The notes: generated from the letters alone by a model not told the origin. DNA of 13,169 nucleotides from Nitrospirota bacterium (GCA_040758355.1 JBFLWF010000050.1:1-13169), one strand, 5' to 3'. Shown: positions 1-13,169, counted from the first letter of the stretch. A program made the numbers and translations.

Positions 1-53
1 GACTTGAAGCCGCGTTGTTTGAGGTTATTATGTGCTGTAGTTGCGGTTTGCAT
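1..53 (-). CDS. 5' fragment of an ORF, possibly the N-terminus of the IS transposase (MQTATTAHNNLKQRGFK..., runs off the window)
   Basis: ATG at 53..51, preceded by CAAGGCA and open to the window edge. It lies about 70 bp inside the putative IS end. No diagnostic motif in the 17 visible codons. Confidence 0.3.
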   Translation of the reverse strand, partial: MQTATTAHNNLKQRGFK

Positions 54-67
54 TGCCTTGTTGTCTG

Positions 68-96
68 ATTTGCCCAGTTTGTTAACTCCTTGTCAA
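68..96 (-). promoter_or_regulatory. Candidate sigma70 promoter inside the putative IS end
   Basis: Perfect -35 TTGACA (96..91), 17-bp spacer, then a weak -10 GCAAAT (73..68) preceded by TGn. It points towards the ATG at 53. Confidence 0.25.
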
Positions 97-1058
97 AAAC
101 TATTCGCTGTTATTGAACAGCCTTTATATGAGGCAAGTCCGTGAACAGTCCCGGCTACAGGAGAGCAGAGCCTTTCGAGATCATATCGCTTCTTTGCCTT
201 TACAACCTCTCCTTCGATGGCAGTAATGCTCTTTTCCCTGTCTACGATATCGCTGAGTATTCCCTTCTCCCTCTCTTTTTTAATGGCATCGAGATTTTTC
301 CGCGCCTCTTCAAGGCTGTCCTTCGCCTGCTTTACTATCCTCTTCTGCGCCTCCATCTCCTGCTCGGCAGAATGAAATTCCATCTGCTTGTTAAGCAGAT
401 CCATTTTAGATATGTATTCGTGCTTATAAAGATTTCTATATGCTATTTCCTGCTCCTTTAATATCGCATGTGTTTTTTCAAGTTTTATTAAAATTGCCTC
501 TGCTGCAAGAAGTGCATTTTCCCTCTGGGAAATAATGAGCCGCAGCGCATCTTCCCTTGCCTTATATTCCGACTCCCTCGCCTCTTTAAGTTTCGTCTGC
601 AATGCAAAGATACCTTTTGTCTTTCGCCTTTTGCTGATTGCTGACGGCTGATTGCTGATAGCTGATTCCTCACCATTCAGCTCCTCCATCAATCTTTCCT
701 TATCAGTTACATGAATCGACAATGCCTTTGCAGTGCTTTCAACATCCGCCTGTTTGATTGTCGGGTCAAGCTCTATGAGGATCTGTCCCTTTTTGACCTG
801 CTGCCCTTCCTGCACATGGATTGCCCTTATCACGCCTGTCTCCATGGGCTGTATGACCTTCACCCTTCCGTCAGGGATCACCTTTCCCCTTGCCACTGCG
901 ACTTCATCGACCTTGCCGAAATACGACCAGATAAATGATAGAAATACCATTCCAAAAATCATCCATATCAATATCCTCTTAACAGGAGAAGGAGGCGTAT
1001 CCTCTATCTCAAGGGCATGAGGCAGGAATTCGTACTCCAGATTGTCGTTCTTAAACAT
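93..1058 (-). pseudogene. hlyD: HlyD-family T1SS membrane fusion protein, C-terminally truncated/interrupted
   Basis: N-terminal EFLPHALEIEDTPPSP plus a transmembrane segment, then VDEVAVARGKVIPDGRVKVIQPMETGVIRAIHVQEGQQVKKGQILIELD, a long coiled coil, and SPVAGTV. The expected continuation (T.GGVV... and the C-terminal beta-barrel) is replaced by KGCSITANSF*. It is 321 aa, whereas family members are usually well over 400 aa. Confidence 0.85.
613..667. repeat. Composite heptamer array inside hlyD (family B x3 plus family A x5)
   Basis: CCTTTTG TCTTTCG CCTTTTG (613-633) runs into GCTGATT GCTGACG GCTGATT GCTGATA GCTGATT (633-667). It encodes ESAISNQPSAISKRRKTKG. Confidence 0.9.
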
Positions 1059-1117
1059 AGCTGTTAGTTTTCAGCATTCAGCGGTCAGCTTTTCCTGATG
1101 GCTGACGGCTGATAGCT
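1059..1117. repeat. Intergenic inverted heptamer array (family A), predicted hairpin
   Basis: Left arm AGCTGTT AGTTTTC AGCATTC AGCGGTC AGC (1059-1089) faces right arm CTGATG GCTGACG GCTGATA GCT (1095-1117). The array fills the whole hlyB-hlyD spacer. Confidence 0.9.
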
Positions 1118-3396
1118 TATTCCCCCCTTTCCTGCTGGCTGTATAAATAATGATAAAGCCCCTTTTGCGCCATCAGTTCCTCATGACTCCCTGCTTCTAT
1201 AAGCTCGCCTTTATCTATAACCAATATCCTCTGTGCATCTCTCAGTGTGGATAGCCTGTGGGCTATGATAATCACTGTCCTTCCCTGGCATATCTTTCTG
1301 AGGTTCCTCTGTATAATGCTCTCGGATTCATAATCGAGTGCAGATGTCGCCTCGTCAAATATCAAAAGCCTCGGGTTCGTCAGGAGCGACCTTGCTATGG
1401 CAATCCTCTGCCTCTGCCCTCCTGAAAGTGCCGTTCCCTTTTCTCCAACCATTGTGTCATACCCTTCGGGAAGTTCGAGTATAAAGTCATGCGCGCCTGC
1501 CAGTTGCGCAACCCTTACAATATCCGACATGGAAGCCGATGGATAATGGATTGCTATGTTGTCCCTCACGCTCCCGTTGAAAAGAAAATTCTCCTGAAGA
1601 ACAACCCCTATCTGCCTCCTGAGCCATGCAGGGTCTGCTAAGGAAATATCAACTCCGTCGATGAGTATCCTGCCAGATTCAGGGATATAAAGCCTCTGAA
1701 TGAGTTTTGTCACAGTGCTTTTTCCTGAGCCGCTCCTTCCTACAATCCCTACTGTCATGCCCGGCTGTATGTCAAATGCAATATTTCTCAACACCTCGGG
1801 ACCATCCACTCTATATCTGAATCTCACGCCTTCGAGCCTTACATTTCCTTTTATGGCAGGAAGCCTTGCCTTTGCCGAGTCCATTGCAGGCTCAGGCTTT
1901 GCATTGAATATATCGCCGAGCCTCTTTATGGAAAGCCCTGCCTGCTGGAATTCCTGCCACATCTGCACAAGCCTCAGCACAGGGTCGCTCACCCTTGCAG
2001 AAAGCATCTGAAATGCTATGAGCTGACCCACTGTAAGATTGCCGTCCATCACAAGATGCGCTCCGACCCACAGGATTAATAGATAAGATGACCTGTGTAT
2101 GAACTGTCCTATTGCACCCGCACTTCCTGACAATTGATATGTCTTGAAACTCGCCCTTATATAATCCGAAAGAAGACCTTCCCACTTTTTCTGCACCTGC
2201 GGCTCGAGGGCAAATGACTTTACTGTCTGCACGCCACCGACTGCCTCCACCAGATATGATTGTGCATCAGCCCCTTTGTTGAACCTCTCATCGAGCCTGT
2301 GTCTGAGCATCGGTGTTACAAATGCAGACAGCCCTGCAAAAAGCGGCAAGGCAGCAAGTGCGACAAATGTCAATTTCACGCTGTAAAAGAGCATAACTGC
2401 TATAAACACCACCATGAACATCACATCGAGCACAGATGTGAGAGGCGCTCCTGTGAGGAATTGCCTTATGTTTTCGAGCTCCCTCACCCTCGCAACCGTA
2501 TCACCGACCCTCCTGACCTCAAAATATCTTAAAGGCAGCGCAAAGAGGTGTTTGAACAATTTTGTTCCGAGGGTAACGTCTATCCTGCTTGTTGTATGAG
2601 TGAACACATAAGTCCTCAATATGCTCAGGATTGCTTCGAACAGGGCTATAGCCGCAAGACCTATGGCAAGGACGTCCAGAGTAGTTATTCCCCTGTGGAC
2701 CAAGACCTTATCGATAATTACCTGCGTGAATATGGGTGTGACAAGTCCGAATATCTGAAGGACTAATGATGCAATCAATACCTCTGAAAGCGGGCCCCTG
2801 TATTTCCATATCGCAGGGATAAACCACTTTATGCCAAAACCTTCCCCGGAAAACGATTTCAATCCCCTGAGTGCAAAAAGGATTATTTTCCCTTCCACCT
2901 TTTGCCCCTTGCCATTTGTCCCTTGCCTATTGCCACCCCACAGGGATATAAATTCATCTTTGTTGATTACTCTTGGTTTGCCTTCAGATGGATTCAGTAT
3001 CAACACCTTCTCAGCCTCTGCCTTTGCGAGGATAACGTATTCCCCTTCGCTGTTTGCTGAAGGCTGATCGCTTGCTGTTTCTTCTTCGTCTTTGCCTTTG
3101 CTGAAAGCTGACGGCTGATTGCCGATAGCTATCTCCACTATTGCCGGCAGTTGAAGTCTCTGAAGCCTTTCATATTCCACATTCACTGCCTTTGCCTTAA
3201 GCCCCATATCCTTTGCTGCCCTTAAGATGTCAATTGTCCCGGCGCCGTCATTTCCAATAGCATAGGCATGCCTTATCTGCTCGGCGTCTGCAGCAATGCC
3301 GTGATATTGCGCTATCATCACGAGGCAGGATAAACCGGTGTCAAGTTTAGGTTTTTGAGAATCAACGTTTATATTTTCTTCTGTTGTTTTATTCAT
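1117..3396 (-). CDS. hlyB: T1SS permease/ATPase (HlyB family) with an N-terminal inactive C39-like domain
   Basis: 759 aa. CLD start DTGLSCLVMIAQYHG. TMD motifs FGIKWFIPAIWKYR, TPIFTQVIIDKVLVHRG and RRVGDTVARVRELENIRQFLTG. Walker A GRSGSGKS, signature LSGGQRQR, Walker B LIFDEATSALD, H-loop IAHRL. Confidence 0.97.
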   Translation of the reverse strand: MNKTTEENINVDSQKPKLDTGLSCLVMIAQYHGIAADAEQIRHAYAIGNDGAGTIDILRAAKDMGLKAKAVNVEYERLQRLQLPAIVEIAIGNQPSAFSKGKDEEETASDQPSANSEGEYVILAKAEAEKVLILNPSEGKPRVINKDEFISLWGGNRQGTNGKGQKVEGKIILFALRGLKSFSGEGFGIKWFIPAIWKYRGPLSEVLIASLVLQIFGLVTPIFTQVIIDKVLVHRGITTLDVLAIGLAAIALFEAILSILRTYVFTHTTSRIDVTLGTKLFKHLFALPLRYFEVRRVGDTVARVRELENIRQFLTGAPLTSVLDVMFMVVFIAVMLFYSVKLTFVALAALPLFAGLSAFVTPMLRHRLDERFNKGADAQSYLVEAVGGVQTVKSFALEPQVQKKWEGLLSDYIRASFKTYQLSGSAGAIGQFIHRSSYLLILWVGAHLVMDGNLTVGQLIAFQMLSARVSDPVLRLVQMWQEFQQAGLSIKRLGDIFNAKPEPAMDSAKARLPAIKGNVRLEGVRFRYRVDGPEVLRNIAFDIQPGMTVGIVGRSGSGKSTVTKLIQRLYIPESGRILIDGVDISLADPAWLRRQIGVVLQENFLFNGSVRDNIAIHYPSASMSDIVRVAQLAGAHDFILELPEGYDTMVGEKGTALSGGQRQRIAIARSLLTNPRLLIFDEATSALDYESESIIQRNLRKICQGRTVIIIAHRLSTLRDAQRILVIDKGELIEAGSHEELMAQKGLYHYLYSQQERGE
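2891..2934. repeat. Heptamer array (family B) in frame inside hlyB
   Basis: CCTTCCA CCTTTTG CCCCTTG CCATTTG TCCCTTG CCTATTG CC, encoding GNRQGTNGKGQKVEG. Confidence 0.85.
3049..3130. repeat. Two heptamer blocks (family A) in frame inside hlyB
   Basis: GCTGTTT GCTGAAG GCTGATC GCT (3049-3072) and GCTGAAA GCTGACG GCTGATT GCCGATA GCT (3100-3130). The region encodes AIGNQPSAFSKGKDEEETASDQPSANS. Confidence 0.9.
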
Positions 3397-3407
3397 AGCA
3401 ATGGTTT

Positions 3408-3559
3408 AGCCTTCAGCTATCAGCCATCAGCCTTCAGCTTTCAGGGTTTATTTTTTGCTGACTACTGACACCTGATAGCTTTTACCCTGACGGCTGATTG
3501 CTGATCTTTCTAATATTTTTCATCCTTTCCTGACGGCTGATTGCTGATCGCTGACAGCT
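3408..3559. repeat. Intergenic heptamer arrays (family A): one TCAGC-type arm and three GCTGA-type blocks
   Basis: AGCCTTC AGCTATC AGCCATC AGCCTTC AGCTTTC AG (3408-3444) and GCTGACT ACTGACA CCTGATA GCT (3457-3480). CCTGACGGCTGATTGCTGATC occurs exactly twice (3486-3506, 3529-3549), the second followed by GCTGACA GCT up to the RTX stop codon. Confidence 0.92.
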
Positions 3560-6500
3560 TATCTATTCCCCTCCCAATATTGCACTAAAATCTGGTTCAC
3601 CTCCTGCGGCTTCTGCTGTATCGCATCGCTCCAGCTTATGCCGTTGTTTGTTGTGAATGTAGCCATTGCCTGAATGAGCTGATCAACTTGCCTGTCATGC
3701 AGATGCCTCCCATCTGTTGTCCTGAATTCGTCAATAAGAAATTCCTTATCATCCCTTTCGCGTCTTCTGCCCTTGCCGTTTTCATCCCGCCAGTTCCAGT
3801 CTTCTATGGTGATTTTATCTGCGCCTCCGTTGATTATGACTTCGAGGTTATCTCCTGAGCGTGAGAAGATCAGGTCGAGGGGATTGACATCGAACTTTAA
3901 TCTGTCTTCATGCCCTTCATGACCGTCGTCCTCACATTTGAATGCTGACTGCTGATAGCTCTTTATTGTGTCGTGCCCGTCTCCACGATTGAAGATGACA
4001 GTATCTTTGCCTTTGCCTGCGTATATGATGTCGTCTCCTTTTCCTCCTATCAGGGTGTCTTTTCCTTTTCCGCCGTAAAGGATATCGTTTCCATTTCCGC
4101 CGTCGAGGAGATCGTTGCCCTTGTCGCCATAAAGCGTATCGTTGCCCTGTTCACCGTAGAGTTTGTCATTGCCCTTTTCTCCGAATATGGTGTCATTGCT
4201 CAGTCCGGCATAAACAGTGTCGCCGCCCTTGCCTGCATAGATGGTGTCGTCATGCCTTCCAGTGCGGATAATATCGCTTTTCTTCGTGCCGTAGGTGGTT
4301 TTCTGTTGGATGATGAGGTCATCCATACTGAAGCTGCTTCCGTCTGCAAAGCCGATTGTTTCAACAGGAATTGTTCCGTCAGGCTTCAGAGTTATATCAA
4401 TGCCCTGAGTTGTTTCGTTGCCTTCGATATCGAGGAGACGCAGATGTGCAACTCCCTGCTGTATGCGGATGATTGTATGGTCAAAGTCGATGCCTGAGCC
4501 CATTTGAAGGGTGTCTGCGCCTGATATATCATCAATACTGTCGAGGCCGTCGCCGATGTTATATATGTAGGTATCATCTCCTGTACCGCCATTCAGAATA
4601 TCGTTGCCGATATTACCTTGCAGTACATCATTACCGTCTCCGGCGTTAATAATGTCATTGCCTTCAAATGTGGTAATTCTATCAACCACATTGGTGCCGT
4701 TTATGATATCATCACCTGTTGTGCCTGTGAGGTCGAAACCCTTTGCAATCAACTGATTGTACGATAGTGTTGTCCCATCGGCGAATTTGAAGGTTTCTAT
4801 GGCGTGTGTTCCGTAAGCATCATCTGGATTGAAATTTTCTATATGGATCTCATCACCCTCATTTCCAACTTTGATGAGCAGAGAACCGAGGCTCAGGCTC
4901 AATGAATCAGGGGTTATACCTGTTCCAAAGACCAGTGTGTTGCCTTCTGTAGCAGTGGCAGTATCATTGATTCTGTCTATGCCGTCGCCGATGTTATAGA
5001 TATAAGTGTCGTCTCCTGCGCCTCCGTTTAGGGTATCATTTCCAATACCTCCATTGATGGTGTCGTTGCCTCCGTCCGTGTTTACAATGTCGTTTCCGCC
5101 TTTGGCATTGATAACATCATTGCCTGCACCTGTGTTGATGACATCGTCTCCCTCTGTGCCGGGGTCGAGAAGGTCTCTGAGTGCAACTTGCGTTCCATCG
5201 CTGAATTCGATTGTGCGGATGTTGGGATTGTCAGGATTAAAGTCGAGGATATTGATTGCATCCCCATCTGTTCCTATTTCTATTGTAAGAATGCCTTCAG
5301 CCTCTACCCTTTCACCTTTTACCTTTAAACCTTCCTTAGTTATCCCCTCACCAAACACTATTAGATTGCCTTCGGTTTCTGTGGCTGTGTCCTGAATGGT
5401 GTCTACACCGTCACCGAGGTTAAAGACGTATGTATCGCTGCCCTCGCCGCCGATAAGCTCGTCATTGCCTGTGCCGCCGGTTAATGTATCATTGCCGCCT
5501 TTGCCTTCCAGTCTGTCAAAACCTTCATATCCGTACAATCTATCCGTTACATTTGTTCCTTTAAGCGCATCATCTCCAAAGTCGCCCTGCACAATGAAGG
5601 TATTCCGCACCAGCTCTCTATAGCTGATAGTTGTGCCATCAGAAAATTTGAACATCTCAACTGCATGGGAGCCGAGGTCTGCATCGTCAGGATCAAAGCC
5701 TGTAAGATGCACTTCATCGCCTTCTCTGCCTACACGGATTATCAGTTTTCCATCCCTATAGGTCATGGAGTTTCTCATATCTTCAATGGTAATGCCCTCA
5801 CCAAAGATTAGTGTATTGCCTGCTGATGATGTTGCAGCATCGTCTATTAAATCAATTCCATCACCTTTATTAAACAGATAAGTATCATCTCCTTCTCCAC
5901 CTGTTAAAGTATCATTGCCGGAACCACCTGAGAGCGTATCGTTACCTGAATTGCCGATAATGTGGTCAGTGACAGCAGTACCGATTAAAGTATCATCACC
6001 TGCGGTCCCTGTGATATCAAAGCCCTTGTCAATCAACTCACTGTAGGTAAGCACAGTGCCGTCCGAAAACTGGAAGTATTCAACAGCGTGCGGGCCATAG
6101 GGATCATCGGAATTAAAGTTCGTAAGTTCCACCCTATCGCCTATTGCCCCTTGCCCATCGCCTATATTTATAATCAGGGTCTTTGCGTCAGGGTCATGGC
6201 TTAAAGTAATATCTGAAAGCTTGATGCCCTGTCCAAAAATCAGGGTATTAGACTGGCCCGGAAGCGATTCATCACTAATGGTGTCAACACCATCTCCGGG
6301 ATTGAACACATAGGTATCATCCCCTGAACCACCTGTCAATACATCGTTTCCGGTACCGCCTCTGAATGTATCATTGGCACTGGTTCCAGTGAGTGTATCA
6401 TTGTTAGTGGTGCCAGTGAAATTGAAGCCTAAACCAATAAGGTCATCATAGCTCAGGATTGTACCATCAGCAAATCCAAAGGTCTCTACTATATGTGAGC

Positions 6501-9500
6501 CGTATACATCGTCAGGATTAAAGCCTTCAAGACGCAAAGCATCACCGCCTTGGCCGACTTGAATAACGAGTGTATTGCCATCTGCAGTCAGCGTTAAATC
6601 TGAAACAGTTATTCCCTCACCGAATTGAATTATATTGCCTGCTCCTTCAGATGCGATGTCGTTTATCGTGTCAATACCGTCGCCGAGATTGAACACATAG
6701 GTGTCATTTCCGCTTCCGCCTTCAAGCGTGTCATTGCCAGGGCCTCCTGTAATAATATCATCACCGCCGAGGGTGGTTATGTGGTCAGGCGCATCAGTGC
6801 CTGACAGCATATAATCAGACTCAGTGCCTGTAAAATTAAGTCCTTTATCAATCAACTGCCTGTAAGTGAGGATTTGACCGTCAGCAAATTCAAATGTCTC
6901 AACTGCATGTGTGCCGTAAACATCATCAGGGTTAAAGTTGCTCAGGCGAATACTGTCACTACCGCTGCCTACCTGAATAATAAGGGTATCATCTTCTATT
7001 TTAATATGTAAGTCATCAGGGGCAACTCCAGCGCCGAAGACTATCCTGTTTCCTTCCTGAGAAGTAGCCTGGTCATCTATTGTGACAGTTCCATTTCCTG
7101 CATTGAATTGATATGTGTCATTGCCTGCGCCGCCGACTAAAATATCCCCTTGATTTCCAGTAAGTGTATCATTGCCGGCACCACCGTTTAAAATATCCTT
7201 TCTTGAATTTGTGCCGCTCAAAGTGTCATTACCTGATGTTCCATTAGTTGGGTAGAAATAGCCGGTTATATCAATATCAGAGGGCGTCAGCACTGTTCCA
7301 TCAGCAAACCTGAACTGGTCTATCTTGAAGTAATTGCCACTAAACCAGTTTTGTATTGTTAGAGAGTCGTTGGTTCCCTTGATTGTTATCTTGAGATTAT
7401 TGCCCTCATAGATGAAGTCTAAGTCATCCTTTGTCATGTCTTCTGCAAATTCCACAATGTCTGTAGCTGTATTAGTGCTATCGTAATCAGCGATTGTATC
7501 CACCCCGCTGCCAAGTCCGAATTTGTATGTGTCGCTGCCAGCACCGCCATTCAATGTGTCGTTGCCTGCTCCCCCGTCAAGTGCATCATTGCCTGCTTCT
7601 CCATATAGCCTGTCATCTCCACTGCCTCCAGTAAGTGTGTCATTGCCTCCGCTGCCCTGCAATGTATCATTGCCCTCATAGCCATATATGTAGTCGGTTG
7701 CTTCTGTGCCGCTGAGTGCGTCGTTTCCTGCTGTCCCATATACCTTGTAGCCTCCAGTTTCAATCTCTGCTGTTGTGATGATGCTGCCATCTGAAAACTT
7801 CAACTGGTCTACCCTGAAAGGGATACCCGAAAACCAATTCTGCAGTATCAGGGAATCCGCTGTACCTTTGATGTTTACTCTCAGGTTGTTGCCGTCCTTT
7901 ATAAAGTCCACATCGTTTCTGGTTATGCCTTCTCCAAATTCCACTGTGTTTATATCATTGACATAGTCGTACTCGGAGATGGTGTCTACCCCGCTGCCAA
8001 GTCCGAATTTGTATGTGTCGCTGCCTGCACCGCCATTCAATGTGTCGTTGCCTGCTCCCCCGTCAAGTGCATCATTGCCTGCTTCTCCATATAGCCTGTC
8101 ATCTCCACTGCCTCCAGTAAGTGTGTCATTGCCTCCGCTACCCTGCAATGTATCATTGCCTTCATAGCCATATATGTAGTCGGTTGCTTCTGTGCCGCTG
8201 AGTGCGTCGTTTCCTGCTGTCCCATATACCTTGTAGCCTCCAGTTTCAATCTCTGCTGCTGTGATGATGCTGCCATCTGAAAACTTTAATTGGTCTACTC
8301 TGAAAGGGATTCCTGAAAACCAGTTCTGCATTGTCAGTGAGTCATTCGTTCCTTTGATTGCTATCCTGAGATGGTTGCTATCCTTTATAAAGTCTAAATC
8401 ATCCTTTGTTATGCCTTCTGCAAATTCAACTGTGTCTGTCTGGGTATTTGTAGAATCAAATTGACTTATCTTATCCTGTCCGCTGCCCCTGCCGAATTTG
8501 TATGTGTCATTGCCTTCTCCGCCCTGAAGAGTATCATTACCCATGCCACCGTCCAGCATGTCATTTCCACTGTCGCCATACAAATAGTCATCTCCAGCAC
8601 CTCCAATCAGGTTATCACTGCCGCTGCTGCCCTGTAATGTATCATTGCCTTCATAGCCATATATGTAGTCGGTTGCTTCTGTGCCGACGAGTGCGTCGTT
8701 TCCTGCTGTCCCATATACCTTGTAGCCTCCAGTTTCAATCTCTGCTGCTGTGATGATGCTGCCATCTGAAAACTTCAACTGGTCTACCCTGAAAGGGATT
8801 CCTGAAAACCAGTTCTGCAGTATCAGGGAATCCGCTGCACCTTTGATGTTTACCCTCAGGTTGTTGCCGTCCTTTATAAAGTCAACATCGTTTCTGGTTA
8901 TGCCTTCTCCAAACTCCACTGTGTTTATATCACTACTCGCCCAGTGATAATCAGCGATTGTGTCTACTCCGCTTCCTCTTCCAAATTTGTATGTGTCATT
9001 GCCTGCACCGCCATTCAATGTGTCATTGCCTGCTCCCCCGTCAAGCACATCGTTGCCGCTGTCTCCATATAGCCTGTCATCTCCGGTACCTCCAGTAAGA
9101 ATATCGTTTCCACCGGTCCCATAAATAGTGACACCATGATTTGGAGCGACAGGAGGCACTATTTGTTTGATGGTATTTACATCCCACATCGTGCCGTCTG
9201 CAAACTGGATTCTCTCGACCTGATTTACAGGGCTTTCATTATTAAACCAGTCTTTAACTGTAAGACTGTCTGTTGTCCCTTTAATGGAAAGAACAAGATG
9301 ATCACCGCTGCGTGTAAGACTTATATCAGACGGCTGAATACTGCCGTCAATCAAAACAGTGTCTATATTGCCTGTGGTTGCATCATAATCCCAGACTATA
9401 TCCTGTCCGCTTCCCCTGCCAAAGATATAGGTATCATTACCTGCTCCTCCGTAAAGGGAGTCATTCCCAGCGCCTCCATCGAGCATGTCATTACCTTCTC

Positions 9501-12500
9501 CGCTGTAAAGGATGTCATTACCTTCGCCTCCTCTAAGCATATCATTCCCTGCTTCATCATAAATGTAATCATCTCCTGAACCTCCGTCTGATATGTCGTC
9601 CCCAAGACCGCCTATGAGAATATCGCTTCCCTCACCGCCACGAAGAATATCATTGCCTGCTTCACCATAAAGATAATCATTCCCTGCACCGCCTTCTAAG
9701 GTATCATCGCTCTGTTGTCCGTAAAGATTGTCATTGCCTCCGAATCCTTGAATTACATCTCCTGTGTTGTAGCCAATCAGTGTATCGTTTCCCTCCGTAC
9801 CTTGAAGGACAAGTTTTTTGATAGCAGGCACATCCCATATAGTGCCGTCGGCAAATTGAATGCGCTCTACCTGATTTGTATTTGTATCGTTCAAAAACCA
9901 GTCTTTAACTATAAGACAATCTGCTGTTCCATTAATGGACAATACAAGGTCATCGAATCTGCGTTGAGTTAAAATATCTGCCGGCAAAATATCGTCAGCT
10001 ATAAGAATGGTATCTGTATTGCCTGCTGTTGTATCAGTATCTATTATTGTGTCCTGACCTGAGCCTCTGCTGAAAATATATGTATCGTTACCTAAACCTC
10101 CGTAAAGTTGGTCATTTCCTGCACCGCCATTGATAATATCATCTCCTTCATGACCATAGAGAGTATCATCACCCTCACCGCCTTGAAGGGTATCATTCCC
10201 TGCCTCACCAAAGAGCTTGTCATCTCCGGCATTACCTCTAAGAATATCGTCTCCCTCTCGTCCATAAATCCGGTCATTGCCAGCCATACCATTAATTACA
10301 TCTGATGATGAGAAGCCGTATAAAATATCATCTCCTTCACTGCCCTGAAGCACGAGCTGTTTGGTGGCATCAATATCCCATATTGTGCCGTCAGCAAACT
10401 GAATGCGCTCTACCTGCCATTGCTTTGTATCATTCCTGAACCAGTTTGAAACTGTAAGTGTATCATTTGTGCCGTTTATGGACAGTACGAGATCATCCCC
10501 TGTCTGCCGGAGCCTGATATCAGATGGTGTGATATCTGAAGATAAAATTATCGTGTCAATATTGCCAGGTGATTCATCGCGGTCAATAATTGTGTCCTGT
10601 CCACTTCCGCGGCTAAAAATGTATGTATCATTGCCGTAACCACCATAAAGGGTGTCGTTTCCTTCACCTCCTGTAAGCGTGTCATTTCCTGCCTCACCAA
10701 AGAGATTATCATTCCCTGTACCCCCGTCAAGGACATCATTGCCACGGCGTCCATAAATAATGTCATTGCCTCCCAATCCTTTAAGCACTTCATCTGTGTA
10801 ATTGCCGACTAAAATATCGTCCCCCTCTGTGCCCTGAAGCACTATTTGTTTAATGGCATCCACATCCAAAACTGTGCCGTCAGCGAATTGGATTCTTTCT
10901 ACCTGCCATTCTCTGGAATCGTTCCAGAACCACTTTGAGACTGTGAGCTTATCCTCTGTGCCTGTTATTGAAAGCACAAGGTCTTCGCCAATGTGCTGAA
11001 GCTTAATATCAGAAGGTGTAATGTCAGGGTTCAGAAGAATGGTATCAACATTTCCGGATGATGCATCCCTGTCTATGATCGTATCCTGTCCTGAGCCCCT
11101 GCCGAATTTGTAGGTATCACTGCCATTAGGGCTATTGGGAGTATAGCCGCTCATTGTTCCGCCTATAAGGACATCATTGCCGGCACCACCATTTAAGATG
11201 TCGTCTCCGGTTCCTGCATGTATGGTGTCGTTGCCATCACCGCCGTCTAAAACATCATTCCCTTCTTCACCATAAAGATAGTCATCTCCCATGCCTCCGT
11301 CAAGAATATCACCACCTGTCCGGCCATACATTTGGTCATTGCCAGCCATGCCATTGATTATGTCAGGAGATGAGTAGCCTATTAATGTATCATTGCTGTC
11401 TTTACCTTGAAGCAATATCTTTTTAACAGTGTCAGCATCCCATACTGTACCGTCGGCAAATTTGATGTTTTCCACAAGGTAGCGGGGGTCTTCATTCAAA
11501 AAATAGTTTTTGACTGTGAGCTGGTCAGTGCTGTCAGCTATTTTCAAAATAAGGTCTTCGCCATTTCGCCGGAGGCTGACGGCTGACGGCTGAATACTGC
11601 TGTCAAATAAAATAGTGTCAATGTTATCAGGTGTTGCATCATTATCACTGATTATGTCCTGTCCGCTGCCGCGACCAAAGATATATGTGTCATTGCCTGT
11701 GCCTCCGTCTAAGGTGTCATTTCCAGTTCCGCCGTCCAGTATGTCTTCCCCGGCTCCTCCATAGAGTTTGTCAAGGCCGGAATCTCCATACAGAACATCG
11801 TTCCCTCCCTGCCCGTAGATTGTATCATCTCCGTCAAACCCCCTCAGGGTGTCGTTATTAGGGCTCCCATATATTACGTCATCAATGTTAGAGGAAAGAG
11901 CAACCCTGTTATACATTTCATTTACATCCCATATTGTGCCGTCCATGAATTGTATTTGCTCTATTCTGTTTAATGGACTGTCGTTTTTGAAGAAGCCTCT
12001 TACGGTGAGTTTGTCGGTGGTATCGTTGATTCTTACTACGAGGTCGTTGACGATTCGTCTGAGTGTGATATCATCCGGCGTGAGGTTGCTGCCAAGCCAT
12101 ATCTTGTCTGTGTTTCCGGCTGTTGGGTCAGAGTCTATGATAGTGTCTTGCCCTGAGCCTACTCTGAAGATGTAGGTGTCATTGCCTGCTTCACCAAAGA
12201 GCATATCATTGCCGCTTCCTCCATCAAGGATGTCATCTCCTGCTCCGGCAAGTATCGTATCGTCAGCTCCGCCAGCAACGAGGGTAGCATTGCCGCTTTC
12301 GTTGATTAAGAATTCACTTATTGTGGTGCCATAGATTACATCATTGCCTAAAGACCCATTGAGAGCTCCACCAAGCCATGTTACGCTTCCTTTGATTGCT
12401 TCGGCATCGGTGATGCCTTCAAAGTGTGGATATCTATTGTGCCCTTCTACATTCAGATCAATTATCGGCAGTCCTGCGGAGTCTATTATCCAGCCAAGTT

Positions 12501-13169
12501 CAGGGTCTATGTTTATAAATGTTTCTCTGAAGTTTAAATAGTTCATCATCTCCTGTGCGCCAAAGCCTCTTATGGTTCTGCTGAATTCGCCGAGAAGTTG
12601 TTTGCCCTGTTCTGCATCGGTCGTAAGGCTATTCTGAAGGTCTGCTATCACTGCGCTCATGTCTGTCTTCACGCTCTGCGTTGCATCATCCCATGTATAA
12701 GTAATCTTTTCATATAAGGGCTTTAAATGCGTCTGCGCCATGAGCTGTGAATACATCATCTCGGATAATCCTCTGTATGCTTCTTTGAGAAGTATCGCTG
12801 ATTCAGGTATTGGGTTGACTCCGTATTGAGAGACAAAGGGCTGGCCGAAGAACTTTTCCAATACCGCAAGTTTCCTTGCATCTATACTGCCGCCTCTGCT
12901 GTTTGGATCTATTCCATCGCTGCCTGTCCATTTGAAAAGTATCTGATCCATGAGGCTGCTGCGGGCAGCGGTGTCTGTTGTGGCTATGAATTGCTCTATC
13001 AGTCCCTTTAGCCCTTCGCCATTTGCCGCTTGCCTGTCTCTCGCCATCGCTTGTTGTAAATCATACATATTGCCATATCCCTGCAAATCAGGGAGAACGG
13101 CTATATCAGGCGGTACATCAAGCCATTCATTGGCAATGGTGTATGTAGTATCTCGTTGTAGGTTGTATT
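3559..13169 (-). CDS. Giant RTX calcium-binding protein, T1SS substrate (5'-partial; FrpA/FrpC-like segment at the visible N-terminal end)
   Basis: Dozens of GGxGxDxLx nonapeptides alternate with about 18 hemolysin-type Ca-binding-related modules (DTYxFxxGxGxDTI...VExIxFADG). The C-terminus VDQLIQAMATF...ILVQYW is typical of T1SS substrates. The frame stays open upstream of the track's TTG at 13086 (YNLQRDTTYTIANEWLDVPPDIAVLPDLQGYG), so the real start lies outside the window. Confidence 0.95.
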   Translation of the reverse strand, partial: YNLQRDTTYTIANEWLDVPPDIAVLPDLQGYGNMYDLQQAMARDRQAANGEGLKGLIEQFIATTDTAARSSLMDQILFKWTGSDGIDPNSRGGSIDARKLAVLEKFFGQPFVSQYGVNPIPESAILLKEAYRGLSEMMYSQLMAQTHLKPLYEKITYTWDDATQSVKTDMSAVIADLQNSLTTDAEQGKQLLGEFSRTIRGFGAQEMMNYLNFRETFINIDPELGWIIDSAGLPIIDLNVEGHNRYPHFEGITDAEAIKGSVTWLGGALNGSLGNDVIYGTTISEFLINESGNATLVAGGADDTILAGAGDDILDGGSGNDMLFGEAGNDTYIFRVGSGQDTIIDSDPTAGNTDKIWLGSNLTPDDITLRRIVNDLVVRINDTTDKLTVRGFFKNDSPLNRIEQIQFMDGTIWDVNEMYNRVALSSNIDDVIYGSPNNDTLRGFDGDDTIYGQGGNDVLYGDSGLDKLYGGAGEDILDGGTGNDTLDGGTGNDTYIFGRGSGQDIISDNDATPDNIDTILFDSSIQPSAVSLRRNGEDLILKIADSTDQLTVKNYFLNEDPRYLVENIKFADGTVWDADTVKKILLQGKDSNDTLIGYSSPDIINGMAGNDQMYGRTGGDILDGGMGDDYLYGEEGNDVLDGGDGNDTIHAGTGDDILNGGAGNDVLIGGTMSGYTPNSPNGSDTYKFGRGSGQDTIIDRDASSGNVDTILLNPDITPSDIKLQHIGEDLVLSITGTEDKLTVSKWFWNDSREWQVERIQFADGTVLDVDAIKQIVLQGTEGDDILVGNYTDEVLKGLGGNDIIYGRRGNDVLDGGTGNDNLFGEAGNDTLTGGEGNDTLYGGYGNDTYIFSRGSGQDTIIDRDESPGNIDTIILSSDITPSDIRLRQTGDDLVLSINGTNDTLTVSNWFRNDTKQWQVERIQFADGTIWDIDATKQLVLQGSEGDDILYGFSSSDVINGMAGNDRIYGREGDDILRGNAGDDKLFGEAGNDTLQGGEGDDTLYGHEGDDIINGGAGNDQLYGGLGNDTYIFSRGSGQDTIIDTDTTAGNTDTILIADDILPADILTQRRFDDLVLSINGTADCLIVKDWFLNDTNTNQVERIQFADGTIWDVPAIKKLVLQGTEGNDTLIGYNTGDVIQGFGGNDNLYGQQSDDTLEGGAGNDYLYGEAGNDILRGGEGSDILIGGLGDDISDGGSGDDYIYDEAGNDMLRGGEGNDILYSGEGNDMLDGGAGNDSLYGGAGNDTYIFGRGSGQDIVWDYDATTGNIDTVLIDGSIQPSDISLTRSGDHLVLSIKGTTDSLTVKDWFNNESPVNQVERIQFADGTMWDVNTIKQIVPPVAPNHGVTIYGTGGNDILTGGTGDDRLYGDSGNDVLDGGAGNDTLNGGAGNDTYKFGRGSGVDTIADYHWASSDINTVEFGEGITRNDVDFIKDGNNLRVNIKGAADSLILQNWFSGIPFRVDQLKFSDGSIITAAEIETGGYKVYGTAGNDALVGTEATDYIYGYEGNDTLQGSSGSDNLIGGAGDDYLYGDSGNDMLDGGMGNDTLQGGEGNDTYKFGRGSGQDKISQFDSTNTQTDTVEFAEGITKDDLDFIKDSNHLRIAIKGTNDSLTMQNWFSGIPFRVDQLKFSDGSIITAAEIETGGYKVYGTAGNDALSGTEATDYIYGYEGNDTLQGSGGNDTLTGGSGDDRLYGEAGNDALDGGAGNDTLNGGAGSDTYKFGLGSGVDTISEYDYVNDINTVEFGEGITRNDVDFIKDGNNLRVNIKGTADSLILQNWFSGIPFRVDQLKFSDGSIITTAEIETGGYKVYGTAGNDALSGTEATDYIYGYEGNDTLQGSGGNDTLTGGSGDDRLYGEAGNDALDGGAGNDTLNGGAGSDTYKFGLGSGVDTIADYDSTNTATDIVEFAEDMTKDDLDFIYEGNNLKITIKGTNDSLTIQNWFSGNYFKIDQFRFADGTVLTPSDIDITGYFYPTNGTSGNDTLSGTNSRKDILNGGAGNDTLTGNQGDILVGGAGNDTYQFNAGNGTVTIDDQATSQEGNRIVFGAGVAPDDLHIKIEDDTLIIQVGSGSDSIRLSNFNPDDVYGTHAVETFEFADGQILTYRQLIDKGLNFTGTESDYMLSGTDAPDHITTLGGDDIITGGPGNDTLEGGSGNDTYVFNLGDGIDTINDIASEGAGNIIQFGEGITVSDLTLTADGNTLVIQVGQGGDALRLEGFNPDDVYGSHIVETFGFADGTILSYDDLIGLGFNFTGTTNNDTLTGTSANDTFRGGTGNDVLTGGSGDDTYVFNPGDGVDTISDESLPGQSNTLIFGQGIKLSDITLSHDPDAKTLIINIGDGQGAIGDRVELTNFNSDDPYGPHAVEYFQFSDGTVLTYSELIDKGFDITGTAGDDTLIGTAVTDHIIGNSGNDTLSGGSGNDTLTGGEGDDTYLFNKGDGIDLIDDAATSSAGNTLIFGEGITIEDMRNSMTYRDGKLIIRVGREGDEVHLTGFDPDDADLGSHAVEMFKFSDGTTISYRELVRNTFIVQGDFGDDALKGTNVTDRLYGYEGFDRLEGKGGNDTLTGGTGNDELIGGEGSDTYVFNLGDGVDTIQDTATETEGNLIVFGEGITKEGLKVKGERVEAEGILTIEIGTDGDAINILDFNPDNPNIRTIEFSDGTQVALRDLLDPGTEGDDVINTGAGNDVINAKGGNDIVNTDGGNDTINGGIGNDTLNGGAGDDTYIYNIGDGIDRINDTATATEGNTLVFGTGITPDSLSLSLGSLLIKVGNEGDEIHIENFNPDDAYGTHAIETFKFADGTTLSYNQLIAKGFDLTGTTGDDIINGTNVVDRITTFEGNDIINAGDGNDVLQGNIGNDILNGGTGDDTYIYNIGDGLDSIDDISGADTLQMGSGIDFDHTIIRIQQGVAHLRLLDIEGNETTQGIDITLKPDGTIPVETIGFADGSSFSMDDLIIQQKTTYGTKKSDIIRTGRHDDTIYAGKGGDTVYAGLSNDTIFGEKGNDKLYGEQGNDTLYGDKGNDLLDGGNGNDILYGGKGKDTLIGGKGDDIIYAGKGKDTVIFNRGDGHDTIKSYQQSAFKCEDDGHEGHEDRLKFDVNPLDLIFSRSGDNLEVIINGGADKITIEDWNWRDENGKGRRRERDDKEFLIDEFRTTDGRHLHDRQVDQLIQAMATFTTNNGISWSDAIQQKPQEVNQILVQYWEGNR
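3944..3960. repeat. Short family A heptamer array in the last RTX module
   Basis: GCTGACT GCTGATA GCT, encoding SYQQSA(F) in DTIKSYQQSAFKCEDD. Confidence 0.65.
5294..5328. repeat. Heptamer array (CCTnnnn) in frame inside the RTX gene
   Basis: CCTTCAG CCTCTAC CCTTTCA CCTTTTA CCTTTAA, encoding LKVKGERVEAEG. Sibling modules lack it. Confidence 0.75.
6133..6165. repeat. Heptamer array (family B) in frame inside the RTX gene
   Basis: CCTATCG CCTATTG CCCCTTG CCCATCG CCTAT, encoding IGDGQGAIGDR. It shares the units CCTATTG and CCCCTTG with the hlyB array at 2891-2934. Confidence 0.85.
7260..9100 (-). repeat. Tandem RTX module repeat, about 486-489 bp period, four related modules (three nearly identical in part)
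   Basis: QNWFSGIPFRVDQLKFSDGSIIT.AEIETGGYKVYGTAGNDAL.GTEATDYIYGYEGNDTLQGS occurs three times. Shadow ORFs recur at 7775/8261/8750 and 7551/8037. About 7502-7800 and 7988-8286 differ by only a few substitutions. Boundaries are approximate. Confidence 0.95.
11574..11594. repeat. Family A heptamer triplet in frame inside the RTX gene
   Basis: GGCTGAC GGCTGAC GGCTGAA, encoding IQPSAVSL. Confidence 0.75.

Follow-up and report, generated by a model that had tools for sequence, protein, structure and literature searches.

Heptamer arrays dispersed through a Nitrospirota secretion operon and genome, and their possible tie to four-helix-bundle gene cassettes

The window analyzed here is a 13,169-nucleotide (nt) stretch of DNA from a Nitrospirota bacterium (GCA_040758355.1, JBFLWF010000050.1), that is, the whole contig C50 of genome G000 (2.77 Mb, 93 contigs, 99% complete). 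Its minus strand carries a type I secretion operon encoding an RTX-repeat protein, HlyB, and a truncated HlyD, and nine tracts of period 7 are dispersed over these genes and the spacers between them. Our preferred reading, held tentatively and at slightly less than even confidence, is that the tracts belong to a population of arrays, about 32 nt and four to five units long, found throughout the genome, that their motifs are those bracketing genes of the four-helix-bundle family TIGR02436 (S23p), and that they are laid down in one step by a trans-acting process tied to the cassettes of these genes. The event exchanges host DNA for an array block, no target duplication accompanies it, and the same sites are hit again by other families. 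The arrays that survive in genes differ by net multiples of three nucleotides and lie mostly on the stop-free strand.

Nine heptamer tracts and their counterparts in relatives

The tracts are the following.

613..667, minus strand, TCAGCnn array with GGCGAAA-type units in an HlyD loop, amino acids (aa) 131-149
1059..1117, minus strand, inverted pair of a TCAGCnn and a GCTGAnn arm with a loop between them, which takes up the hlyB-hlyD gap
2891..2934, minus strand, GGCAAnn array in HlyB loop 2, aa 155-169, with 14 aa lacking a counterpart in Escherichia coli HlyB
3049..3130, minus strand, two TCAGCnn arrays in HlyB loop 1, aa 89-116
3408..3559, minus strand, several arms of TCAGCnn and a single one of GCTGAnn, which take up the gap between RTX and hlyB
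3944..3960, minus strand, short TCAGCnn array in the RTX C-terminal region
5294..5328, minus strand, AAAGGTG-type array within an RTX module
6133..6165, minus strand, GGCnATA-type array at Ile-Gly-Asn codons, net +4 aa
11574..11594, minus strand, three TCAGCCG units turning IQPSDISL into IQPSAVSL, length unchanged

An earlier note, made from the sequence alone, had listed nine 7-periodic tracts at these positions, and period 7 was confirmed for all of them (lag-7 identity 0.53-0.93). TRF calls arrays in six, with none at 3049..3130, 3944..3960, and 6133..6165; the first of these three consists of two short arrays separated by a non-periodic stretch. Against a threshold of 8 for the period-7 segment score, 2891..2934 and 3944..3960 score only 6 and are weak when taken alone; orthologs support both. 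Seven of the nine tracts lie within HlyD, HlyB, and the RTX open reading frame (ORF) without breaking the frame, again as the note had it. The window coding sequence contains six period-7 segments, compared with a mean of 0.37 in 300 synonymous shuffles and 0.27 in 300 codon-order shuffles (maximum 2). Two points of the note had to be corrected. Instead of two families, the window holds at least three and the genome at least 16, 8-mers included; and the tract at 11574..11594 is no insertion but a same-length overwrite that begins at Ile-Gln-Pro-Ser codons, as seen against the paralogous module at aa 1277 and the module of G058.

A close HlyB was found in 11 of 61 genomes, and a metagenome scan for HlyB gave distant relatives only. 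G002 is a congener of G000; G001-G058, L061, and similar labels denote relatives or loci compared. Loops 1 and 2 of HlyB contain inserts of differing families in G000, G002, G058, and G022; in G001, G005, G021, and G020 they are short or empty. Both inserts sit at gaps relative to E. coli HlyB, which has neither. Loop 1 (3049..3130) is 25 aa shorter in G002, and in contigs of runs X7 and X12 four letters replace 79. At loop 2, a contig of run X2 with flanks about 98% identical has GCTGAnn units, a motif read by eye from the difference table. At the HlyD site (613..667), an AAAGGTG/TTCACCT inverted pair in G002 takes the place of the TCAGCnn units of G000; GGCnAn-type arrays are present in G001, G058, and L061, the family of G000 recurs in G022, and no obvious array is seen in the loop of G021 or L071, the site being a loop that also varies among orthologs free of arrays. 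In G002 the hlyB-hlyD gap contains a pair of the GGCAATA type and is about 400 nt longer than in G000, and the RTX-hlyB gap (3408..3559) is occupied by an unrelated spacer in G002 and by 144 different letters in a contig of run X4. Within the RTX gene, the peptide at 3944..3960 is the same in G001, is replaced by GGCnATA-type arrays in G002 and G058, and is nearly empty in L061; the module position matching 5294..5328 holds a TCAGCnn array in G001; and at 6133..6165 the array-free homolog (L061) reads Ile-Gly-Asn, with codons spelling one repeat unit.

Several orthologs do without the tracts. The proposal of the earlier note that the tracts create new protein loops stands in part: both inserts in HlyB extend loops that the E. 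coli protein lacks, but the HlyD site varies without arrays, and the tract at 11574..11594 keeps its length.

Two further observations concern the same loci in relatives. Whole inverted pairs, arms and loop together, are translated in frame in HlyB loop 2 of G058 (L009) and in the HlyD loop of G002 (L019). In the hlyB-hlyD gap of the latter genome (G002:C20:4137-4612, L019), a GGCAATA hairpin is followed by about 300 nt that seem to contain small hydrophobic ORFs on the opposite strand.

Array families and block replacement

The arrays are genome-wide and not confined to the locus, and in the coding sequence they stand above codon-shuffled nulls. We found 576 arrays in G000 (397 of period 7 and 179 of period 8), 255 of them internal to genes under coding classes that are approximate, as the gene calls come from our own hexamer model. 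Sixteen seed families, including 8-mers, account for 550 of the 576. Lag-7 segments scoring at least 12 number 325 in the whole genome and 0 in a fifth-order Markov null, and period 8 is also enriched (140 vs 1); in the genome coding sequence, 236 period-7 segments compare with 5-10 and 0-1 in synonymous and codon-order shuffles. Median array lengths are 32 and 34 nt, alike in genes and spacers, and unit chains peak at four to five units and then drop sharply, with almost none at six, a non-geometric distribution. Array flanks are mostly unique, and arrays cluster along the genome (variance 2.2 vs mean 1.1 per 5 kb). For instance, about 16 in-frame arrays fall into 18 kb of consecutive genes at G000:C1:179800-198200.

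Orientation within genes tracks stop codons: TCAGCAG is found at 55:4 and AGGGTCA at 29:2. Of three families with stops on both strands, TAGGTTA and TTAAGTCA have no internal coding copy, and TAGCTCA has three. The exception in orientation is TAGGCAA (13:15), which is rescued by variant units, as in the window. Unit variation within an array is position-specific, also in young arrays, and substitution between species in shared arrays is nearly uniform over positions (0.057-0.079; flanks 0.079). Together these two observations imply that the degeneracy arrives with the patch. Continued selection on unit cores inside genes was considered and rejected on the same near-uniform substitution.

Inverted pairs number 47 in G000. 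L arms start at stop codons in 122 of 136 cases, and R arms end before starts in 67 of 77; none of 59 hairpins has perfectly complementary arms, and loops lean A-rich and then T-rich. Arms within one hairpin are as alike (0.817) as arms of different hairpins of the same family (0.826), and a fold-back origin of hairpins was rejected because arms are no more alike than unrelated ones, a pattern that loss of perfect palindromes could also yield. Selection on hairpins at the RNA level was likewise rejected: G.U and A.C pairs on the sense strand stand at 88:81, and the sense strand folds better in just 38 of 65. The pairs, together with the placement of their arms at stops and before starts, would suit a fixed element similar to MITEs (miniature transposable elements with inverted repeats) or REPINs and moved by a transposase, such as a RAYT-like Y1 enzyme, with single arms as its scars; G000 has two Y1_Tnp matches. 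There are, however, no fixed ends, fixed loops, or target duplications, heptamer arms are absent by eye from both Y1_Tnp genes, and single arms in seemingly essential genes would be unlikely to survive an insert-then-delete path. We regard this explanation as quite improbable.

Both Y1_Tnp (RAYT-like) genes (G000:C10:9150-9900, L195, and G000:C21:12700-13450, L194) have short flanking inverted repeats of their own with a TAGGGACA core, possibly a separate REP-like system, and a similar GGGACTGTCCC palindrome is present inside two genes (C2:32608 and C23:34880). A further dispersed repeat of about 21 nt, with a CAAGACCCTG core, adjoins arrays inside genes at G000:C8:20352, C32:7428, and C7:24176.

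The comparison of G000 with G002 took in 2.2 of the approximately 2.6 Mb of G002, at a flank identity of about 91%. Both flanks were found in G002 for 213 coding sites, of which 87 share the array, seven show a change within the same family, 63 have another family, and 56 have no called array; several of the latter show decayed arrays of other families. Thus, at half of the unshared coding sites (63/126), G002 has an array of another family in the position of the G000 array. The swaps pair families of little homology, including 7-mer with 8-mer. The background is 83 array-containing windows among 5000 random coding windows. At coding indels of at least 6 nt (n = 245), a G002 array is present at 41 of 79 sites with a G000 array, some of the 41 being inherited arrays, vs 30 of 166 sites without one. 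Site tolerance explains much of this recurrence, and an approximately threefold excess remains.

All 81 sites with clean junctions are block replacements (median 40-50 nt vs 27-44 nt). The net change is a multiple of three in 81 of 81 and a multiple of seven in 9 of 81, and a duplication of at least 4 nt accompanies 3 of 81, all counted as differences between two genomes, in either direction of change. Because the changes are net-3n block replacements without target duplication, they are not simple slippage. In its fuller form, the slippage explanation takes the arrays for ordinary long microsatellites: a chance 7-mer is grown by the polymerase, steps of three units are kept in genes, and loops that tolerate change are struck time and again. 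Several observations agree with it: clean 21-nt duplications at a few sites (C43:584, C6:30445), identical neighbors in 89 of 163 unit steps, the seeds seen at window sites, and the 136 of 245 indel sites without an array, which mark tolerant loops as common. However, unit-wise growth is not what was found, as 7-nt multiples are confined to the nine differences above, most differences replace host letters, and same-family changes make up 7 of 213 sites. Array length is non-geometric, the same few families are shared by hundreds of sites and recur across the order (a reversed-pattern control is near 0), and the inverted pairs and the cassette link are left unexplained. The run X2 contig, with a whole-family swap without intermediates, weakens slippage further, and we consider it improbable, if less so than a transposed element.

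Arrays are involved in 109 of the 245 coding indels between these two species of one lineage, a share from which we conclude that proteins, those of the secretion machinery among them, are shaped by the process on a large scale.

Four-helix-bundle cassettes and a possible writer

G000 has six TIGR02436 matches, each with its own inverted 7-, 8-, or 9-mer arms (6/6 by eye). None of the six lies in the window; the layout of such a gene between inverted arms occurs elsewhere in G000 and in relatives. By script, matched arms were called for 29 of 50 distinct genes from G000 and 14 relatives; the counts were 6 of 155 for other ORFs and 182 of 2450 for mismatched gene-arm pairings. Arms are shared in 7 of 7 protein pairs of at least 60% identity and in 8 of 387 pairs below 50%. 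In a clade (99/97) drawn from three host families, four of five members have TCAGC/GCTGA-type arms, the motif of the window; arms of this type were seen at L197, L201, L202, and L198, and TAGGYnA arms at L001 and L200. Across genomes, a threshold of 10 matches to the two tested patterns is reached by 19 of the 45 that have the gene and by none of the 16 that lack it, and one of five matches by 22 of 45 and 1 of 16, counts in which kin are not independent. The tie to TIGR02436 genes, a guess in the earlier note, is supported, and the note's view of a trans-acting process agrees with array families that behave as if written in trans.

Four-helix-bundle genes were also met in other settings. A CRISPR-array end of G000 (C24:130-650, L002) holds such a cassette between CRISPR repeats, the same place in G002 (C21:2043-2492, L044 and L092) a different cassette with other arms, and that in G004 (C97, L029) what appears to be a toxin-antitoxin pair of the AbrB-PIN type, with remnants of repeats on both sides. 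The direct repeat of 22 bp that flanks the C24 cassette was rejected as a target duplication, being a CRISPR repeat; such genes have been noted in cas loci (PMC3936711). A single GxxExxY (TIGR04256) gene (G000:C7:41200-41630, L193) has its own inverted arms of GATTACACA-type repeats and is a second cargo family with the same layout.

The earlier note had suggested a reverse transcriptase (RT) as one possible writer. An RT acting with an Avd-like protein on an RNA template would accord with the weak match of the four-helix-bundle proteins to Avd (NF033474, E 8e-9, below cut-off), but no PF00078 match is present in the 99%-complete G000, array-rich genomes do not co-occur with RT (8 of 22 with it vs 11 of 39 without, p 0.57, 61 genomes), and there is no RNA-strand bias in the hairpins. 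This writer is very improbable, the least favored of those considered, and that part of the note is not supported.

In the mechanism that we favor, host repair at a nick or break would add four to five loosely specified units to a free end, the motif being set by the pentameric protein of the cassettes (the PDB relatives 2GSC and 2RLD have five chains) or by arm nucleic acid held by this protein. A single arm would result from writing on one end, an inverted pair with a unique AT-rich loop between its arms from writing on both, and a cassette from the capture of a gene. Some events are probably primed by host codons that match a unit by chance (Ile-Gly-Asn, Ile-Gln-Pro-Ser, Ser-Tyr), and the patches would then be filtered by selection for frame and against stop codons. 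The templated, telomerase-like process of the earlier note fits the anatomy of the arrays and otherwise stands as inference.

Several observations weigh against a cassette-tied writer. Arms were not called by script for 21 of the 50 four-helix-bundle genes, 26 of the 45 gene-bearing genomes have fewer than 10 matches to the two patterns, and G000 has no four-helix-bundle gene with TCAGC arms, though TCAGC is its largest family (88 of 550 assigned). The covariation of protein and arms may be plain co-inheritance. Seed length genome-wide gives a small signal (4.4 vs 3.8 nt), and the three longest seeds are at duplication-type sites. A test for directional priming was significant over all sites (57 vs 26); without paired sites it held for L arrays (30 vs 12) and not for R arrays (6 vs 10). 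The unit cap, about 4.6 for 7-mers and 4.25 for 8-mers, is not simply that of five subunits. The protein has no known catalytic activity. The Coxiella member of the family is probably not expressed, according to its description (PMC4990558). Finally, a 31-nt string from 6133..6165 recurs at a different, non-orthologous site in G058, and four of the seven genome copies of one 14-mer lie in the window.

The last two observations point to the copying of blocks at least sometimes, and they lead to the strongest alternative, in which host recombination, by short-patch gene conversion or illegitimately, overwrites a tolerant site with a block taken from another array or from a cassette that has come in, and the four-helix-bundle gene is only cargo that moves between arms and seeds new families. 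This explanation requires no enzyme. It is in line with the identity of the degenerate 31-nt string at its two sites and the local excess of the 14-mer, with the array at C1:179859, where all four units differ at one position, with the purine polarity retained in 49 of 63 swaps, and with words of at least 16 nt common to another array in 452 of 576 arrays. However, unique flanks seldom travel along, the families swapped have little homology and may differ in unit length, neighboring arrays share a family only slightly more often than distant ones (0.09-0.10 vs 0.057), and copying alone leaves the length cap and the independent hairpin arms unexplained. Flanks or tails brought in from a donor were looked for and rejected, as 3 of 22 tails were seen again in G000. 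We regard this alternative as fairly plausible, though less probable than a cassette-tied process.

A more specific form of the cassette-tied reading is speculative, and we think it rather unlikely as it stands: pentamers of the four-helix-bundle protein might be the specificity heads of an RT-independent, telomerase-like DNA writer, each clade stamping its own 7-8-base repeat, about 33 nt per event, onto broken ends. If true, such a writer would make its own cassette arms, account for the excess of heptamers in many bacterial genomes, and be a main source of new protein loops in these bacteria. Two old questions, the heptamer excess in bacteria and the function of S23p/TIGR02436, meet here, and the link between arrays and cassettes yields a direct test, with a protein clade, its motif, and a measurable product.

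Genes of the window and comparison with known systems

The remaining features of the window are as follows.

1..124, multi-copy sequence end that cuts hlyD short (BLAST matches and homology break)
93..1058, minus strand, hlyD, type I secretion adaptor, 321 aa, 3'-truncated (TIGR01843, E 3e-56)
1117..3396, minus strand, hlyB, type I secretion ABC transporter, 759 aa (TIGR01846, 952 bits, above cut-off; PDB 7SGR match)
3559..13167, minus strand, large calcium-binding protein with RTX repeats, at least 3202 aa, its frame open where the contig ends (PF00353 x36, PF06594 x15)

The hlyD match is below the cut-off and covers profile positions 2-285 of 422; orthologous frames are 438-537 aa. The sequence at 1..124 has 16 BLAST matches in G000, the window itself included, all at contig ends, and is probably the end of an insertion sequence. 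Homology of the congener to the window ends at about 125, and a contig of the likely source run spans 125-3431 and then continues into other sequence; the interruption of hlyD may be polymorphic or an assembly join. The RTX gene also contains a module of 489 bp in 3.3 copies, 80% alike, at 7484-9099.

Published systems are compared here with the arrays. Among RT-based elements (DGR, retron, DRT), an RT in the genome co-occurring with the repeats is the expected sign, and neither part of it was seen. Rickettsia palindromic elements (RPEs) and MITEs are similarly selfish-looking repeats translated in frame in ordinary genes, RPEs being elements of about 150 bp with a conserved peptide (PMC10969869). 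The arrays share in-frame residence with them (81/81) but are tandem patches of about 32 nt with unique flanks, read in all three frames in turn, without fixed shared ends, a conserved peptide, or target-site duplication (3/81).

In REP/REPIN-RAYT systems a small gene lies between inverted copies of a repeat, and the repeat is dispersed elsewhere in single and double copies too. The flanked small gene and the dispersed single and paired copies recur here; unlike in that system, the gene between the arms does not encode a transposase, a tandem array stands in place of a palindrome, and neither of the two Y1_Tnp genes has heptamer arms by eye.

The intervening sequence of Coxiella 23S rRNA has a four-helix-bundle ORF between inverted ends, with tandem GACAGAT before the start (Warrier et al. 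2016, PMC4990558). The G000 cassettes are similar in having such an ORF between inverted ends with heptamers, and XCC0516 is a pentameric relative (PMC4990558); the arm motif of the window is shared with a cassette clade. Unlike the rRNA element, the G000 cassettes with flanks read adjoin protein genes or sit in a CRISPR array, the window has arms without a gene, and the stems have no RNA-strand bias.

The closest likeness is to the dispersed heptamer arrays (LSSR/STRR) described as GGGAATC in Xanthomonas and GGGGAYT in Nostoc (Rehm et al. 2015, PMC4692102) and as TAACTGA in Beggiatoaceae (MacGregor 2015, PMC4679880). Four-unit arrays, inverted pairs, and gene polarity have been published for the former (Rehm 2015, PMC4692102), and coding copies in stop-free orientation for the latter (MacGregor 2015, PMC4679880). 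The arrays of G000 agree with them in 7-nt units at above-chance period 7, in the preference for about four units, in inverted pairs with stop/start polarity, that is, a purine-rich arm on the coding strand right behind stops, with the complementary arm ahead of starts, and in genic copies that are mainly stop-free. A literature search, which most subscription papers lay outside, gave no paper tying the TIGR02436 family to genome-wide arrays or reporting same-site family swaps. The system is a real, known class of repeat with an inferred writer; heptamer arrays, the four-unit bias, and inverted pairs were already known. In the papers cited, published heptamer arrays have one family per genome, are mostly intergenic, and are read as G-quadruplex or translational control, whereas here at least 16 families of 7- and 8-mers are present, 255 of 576 arrays lie in genes, families are swapped at the same sites, and the arrays are tied to TIGR02436 genes.

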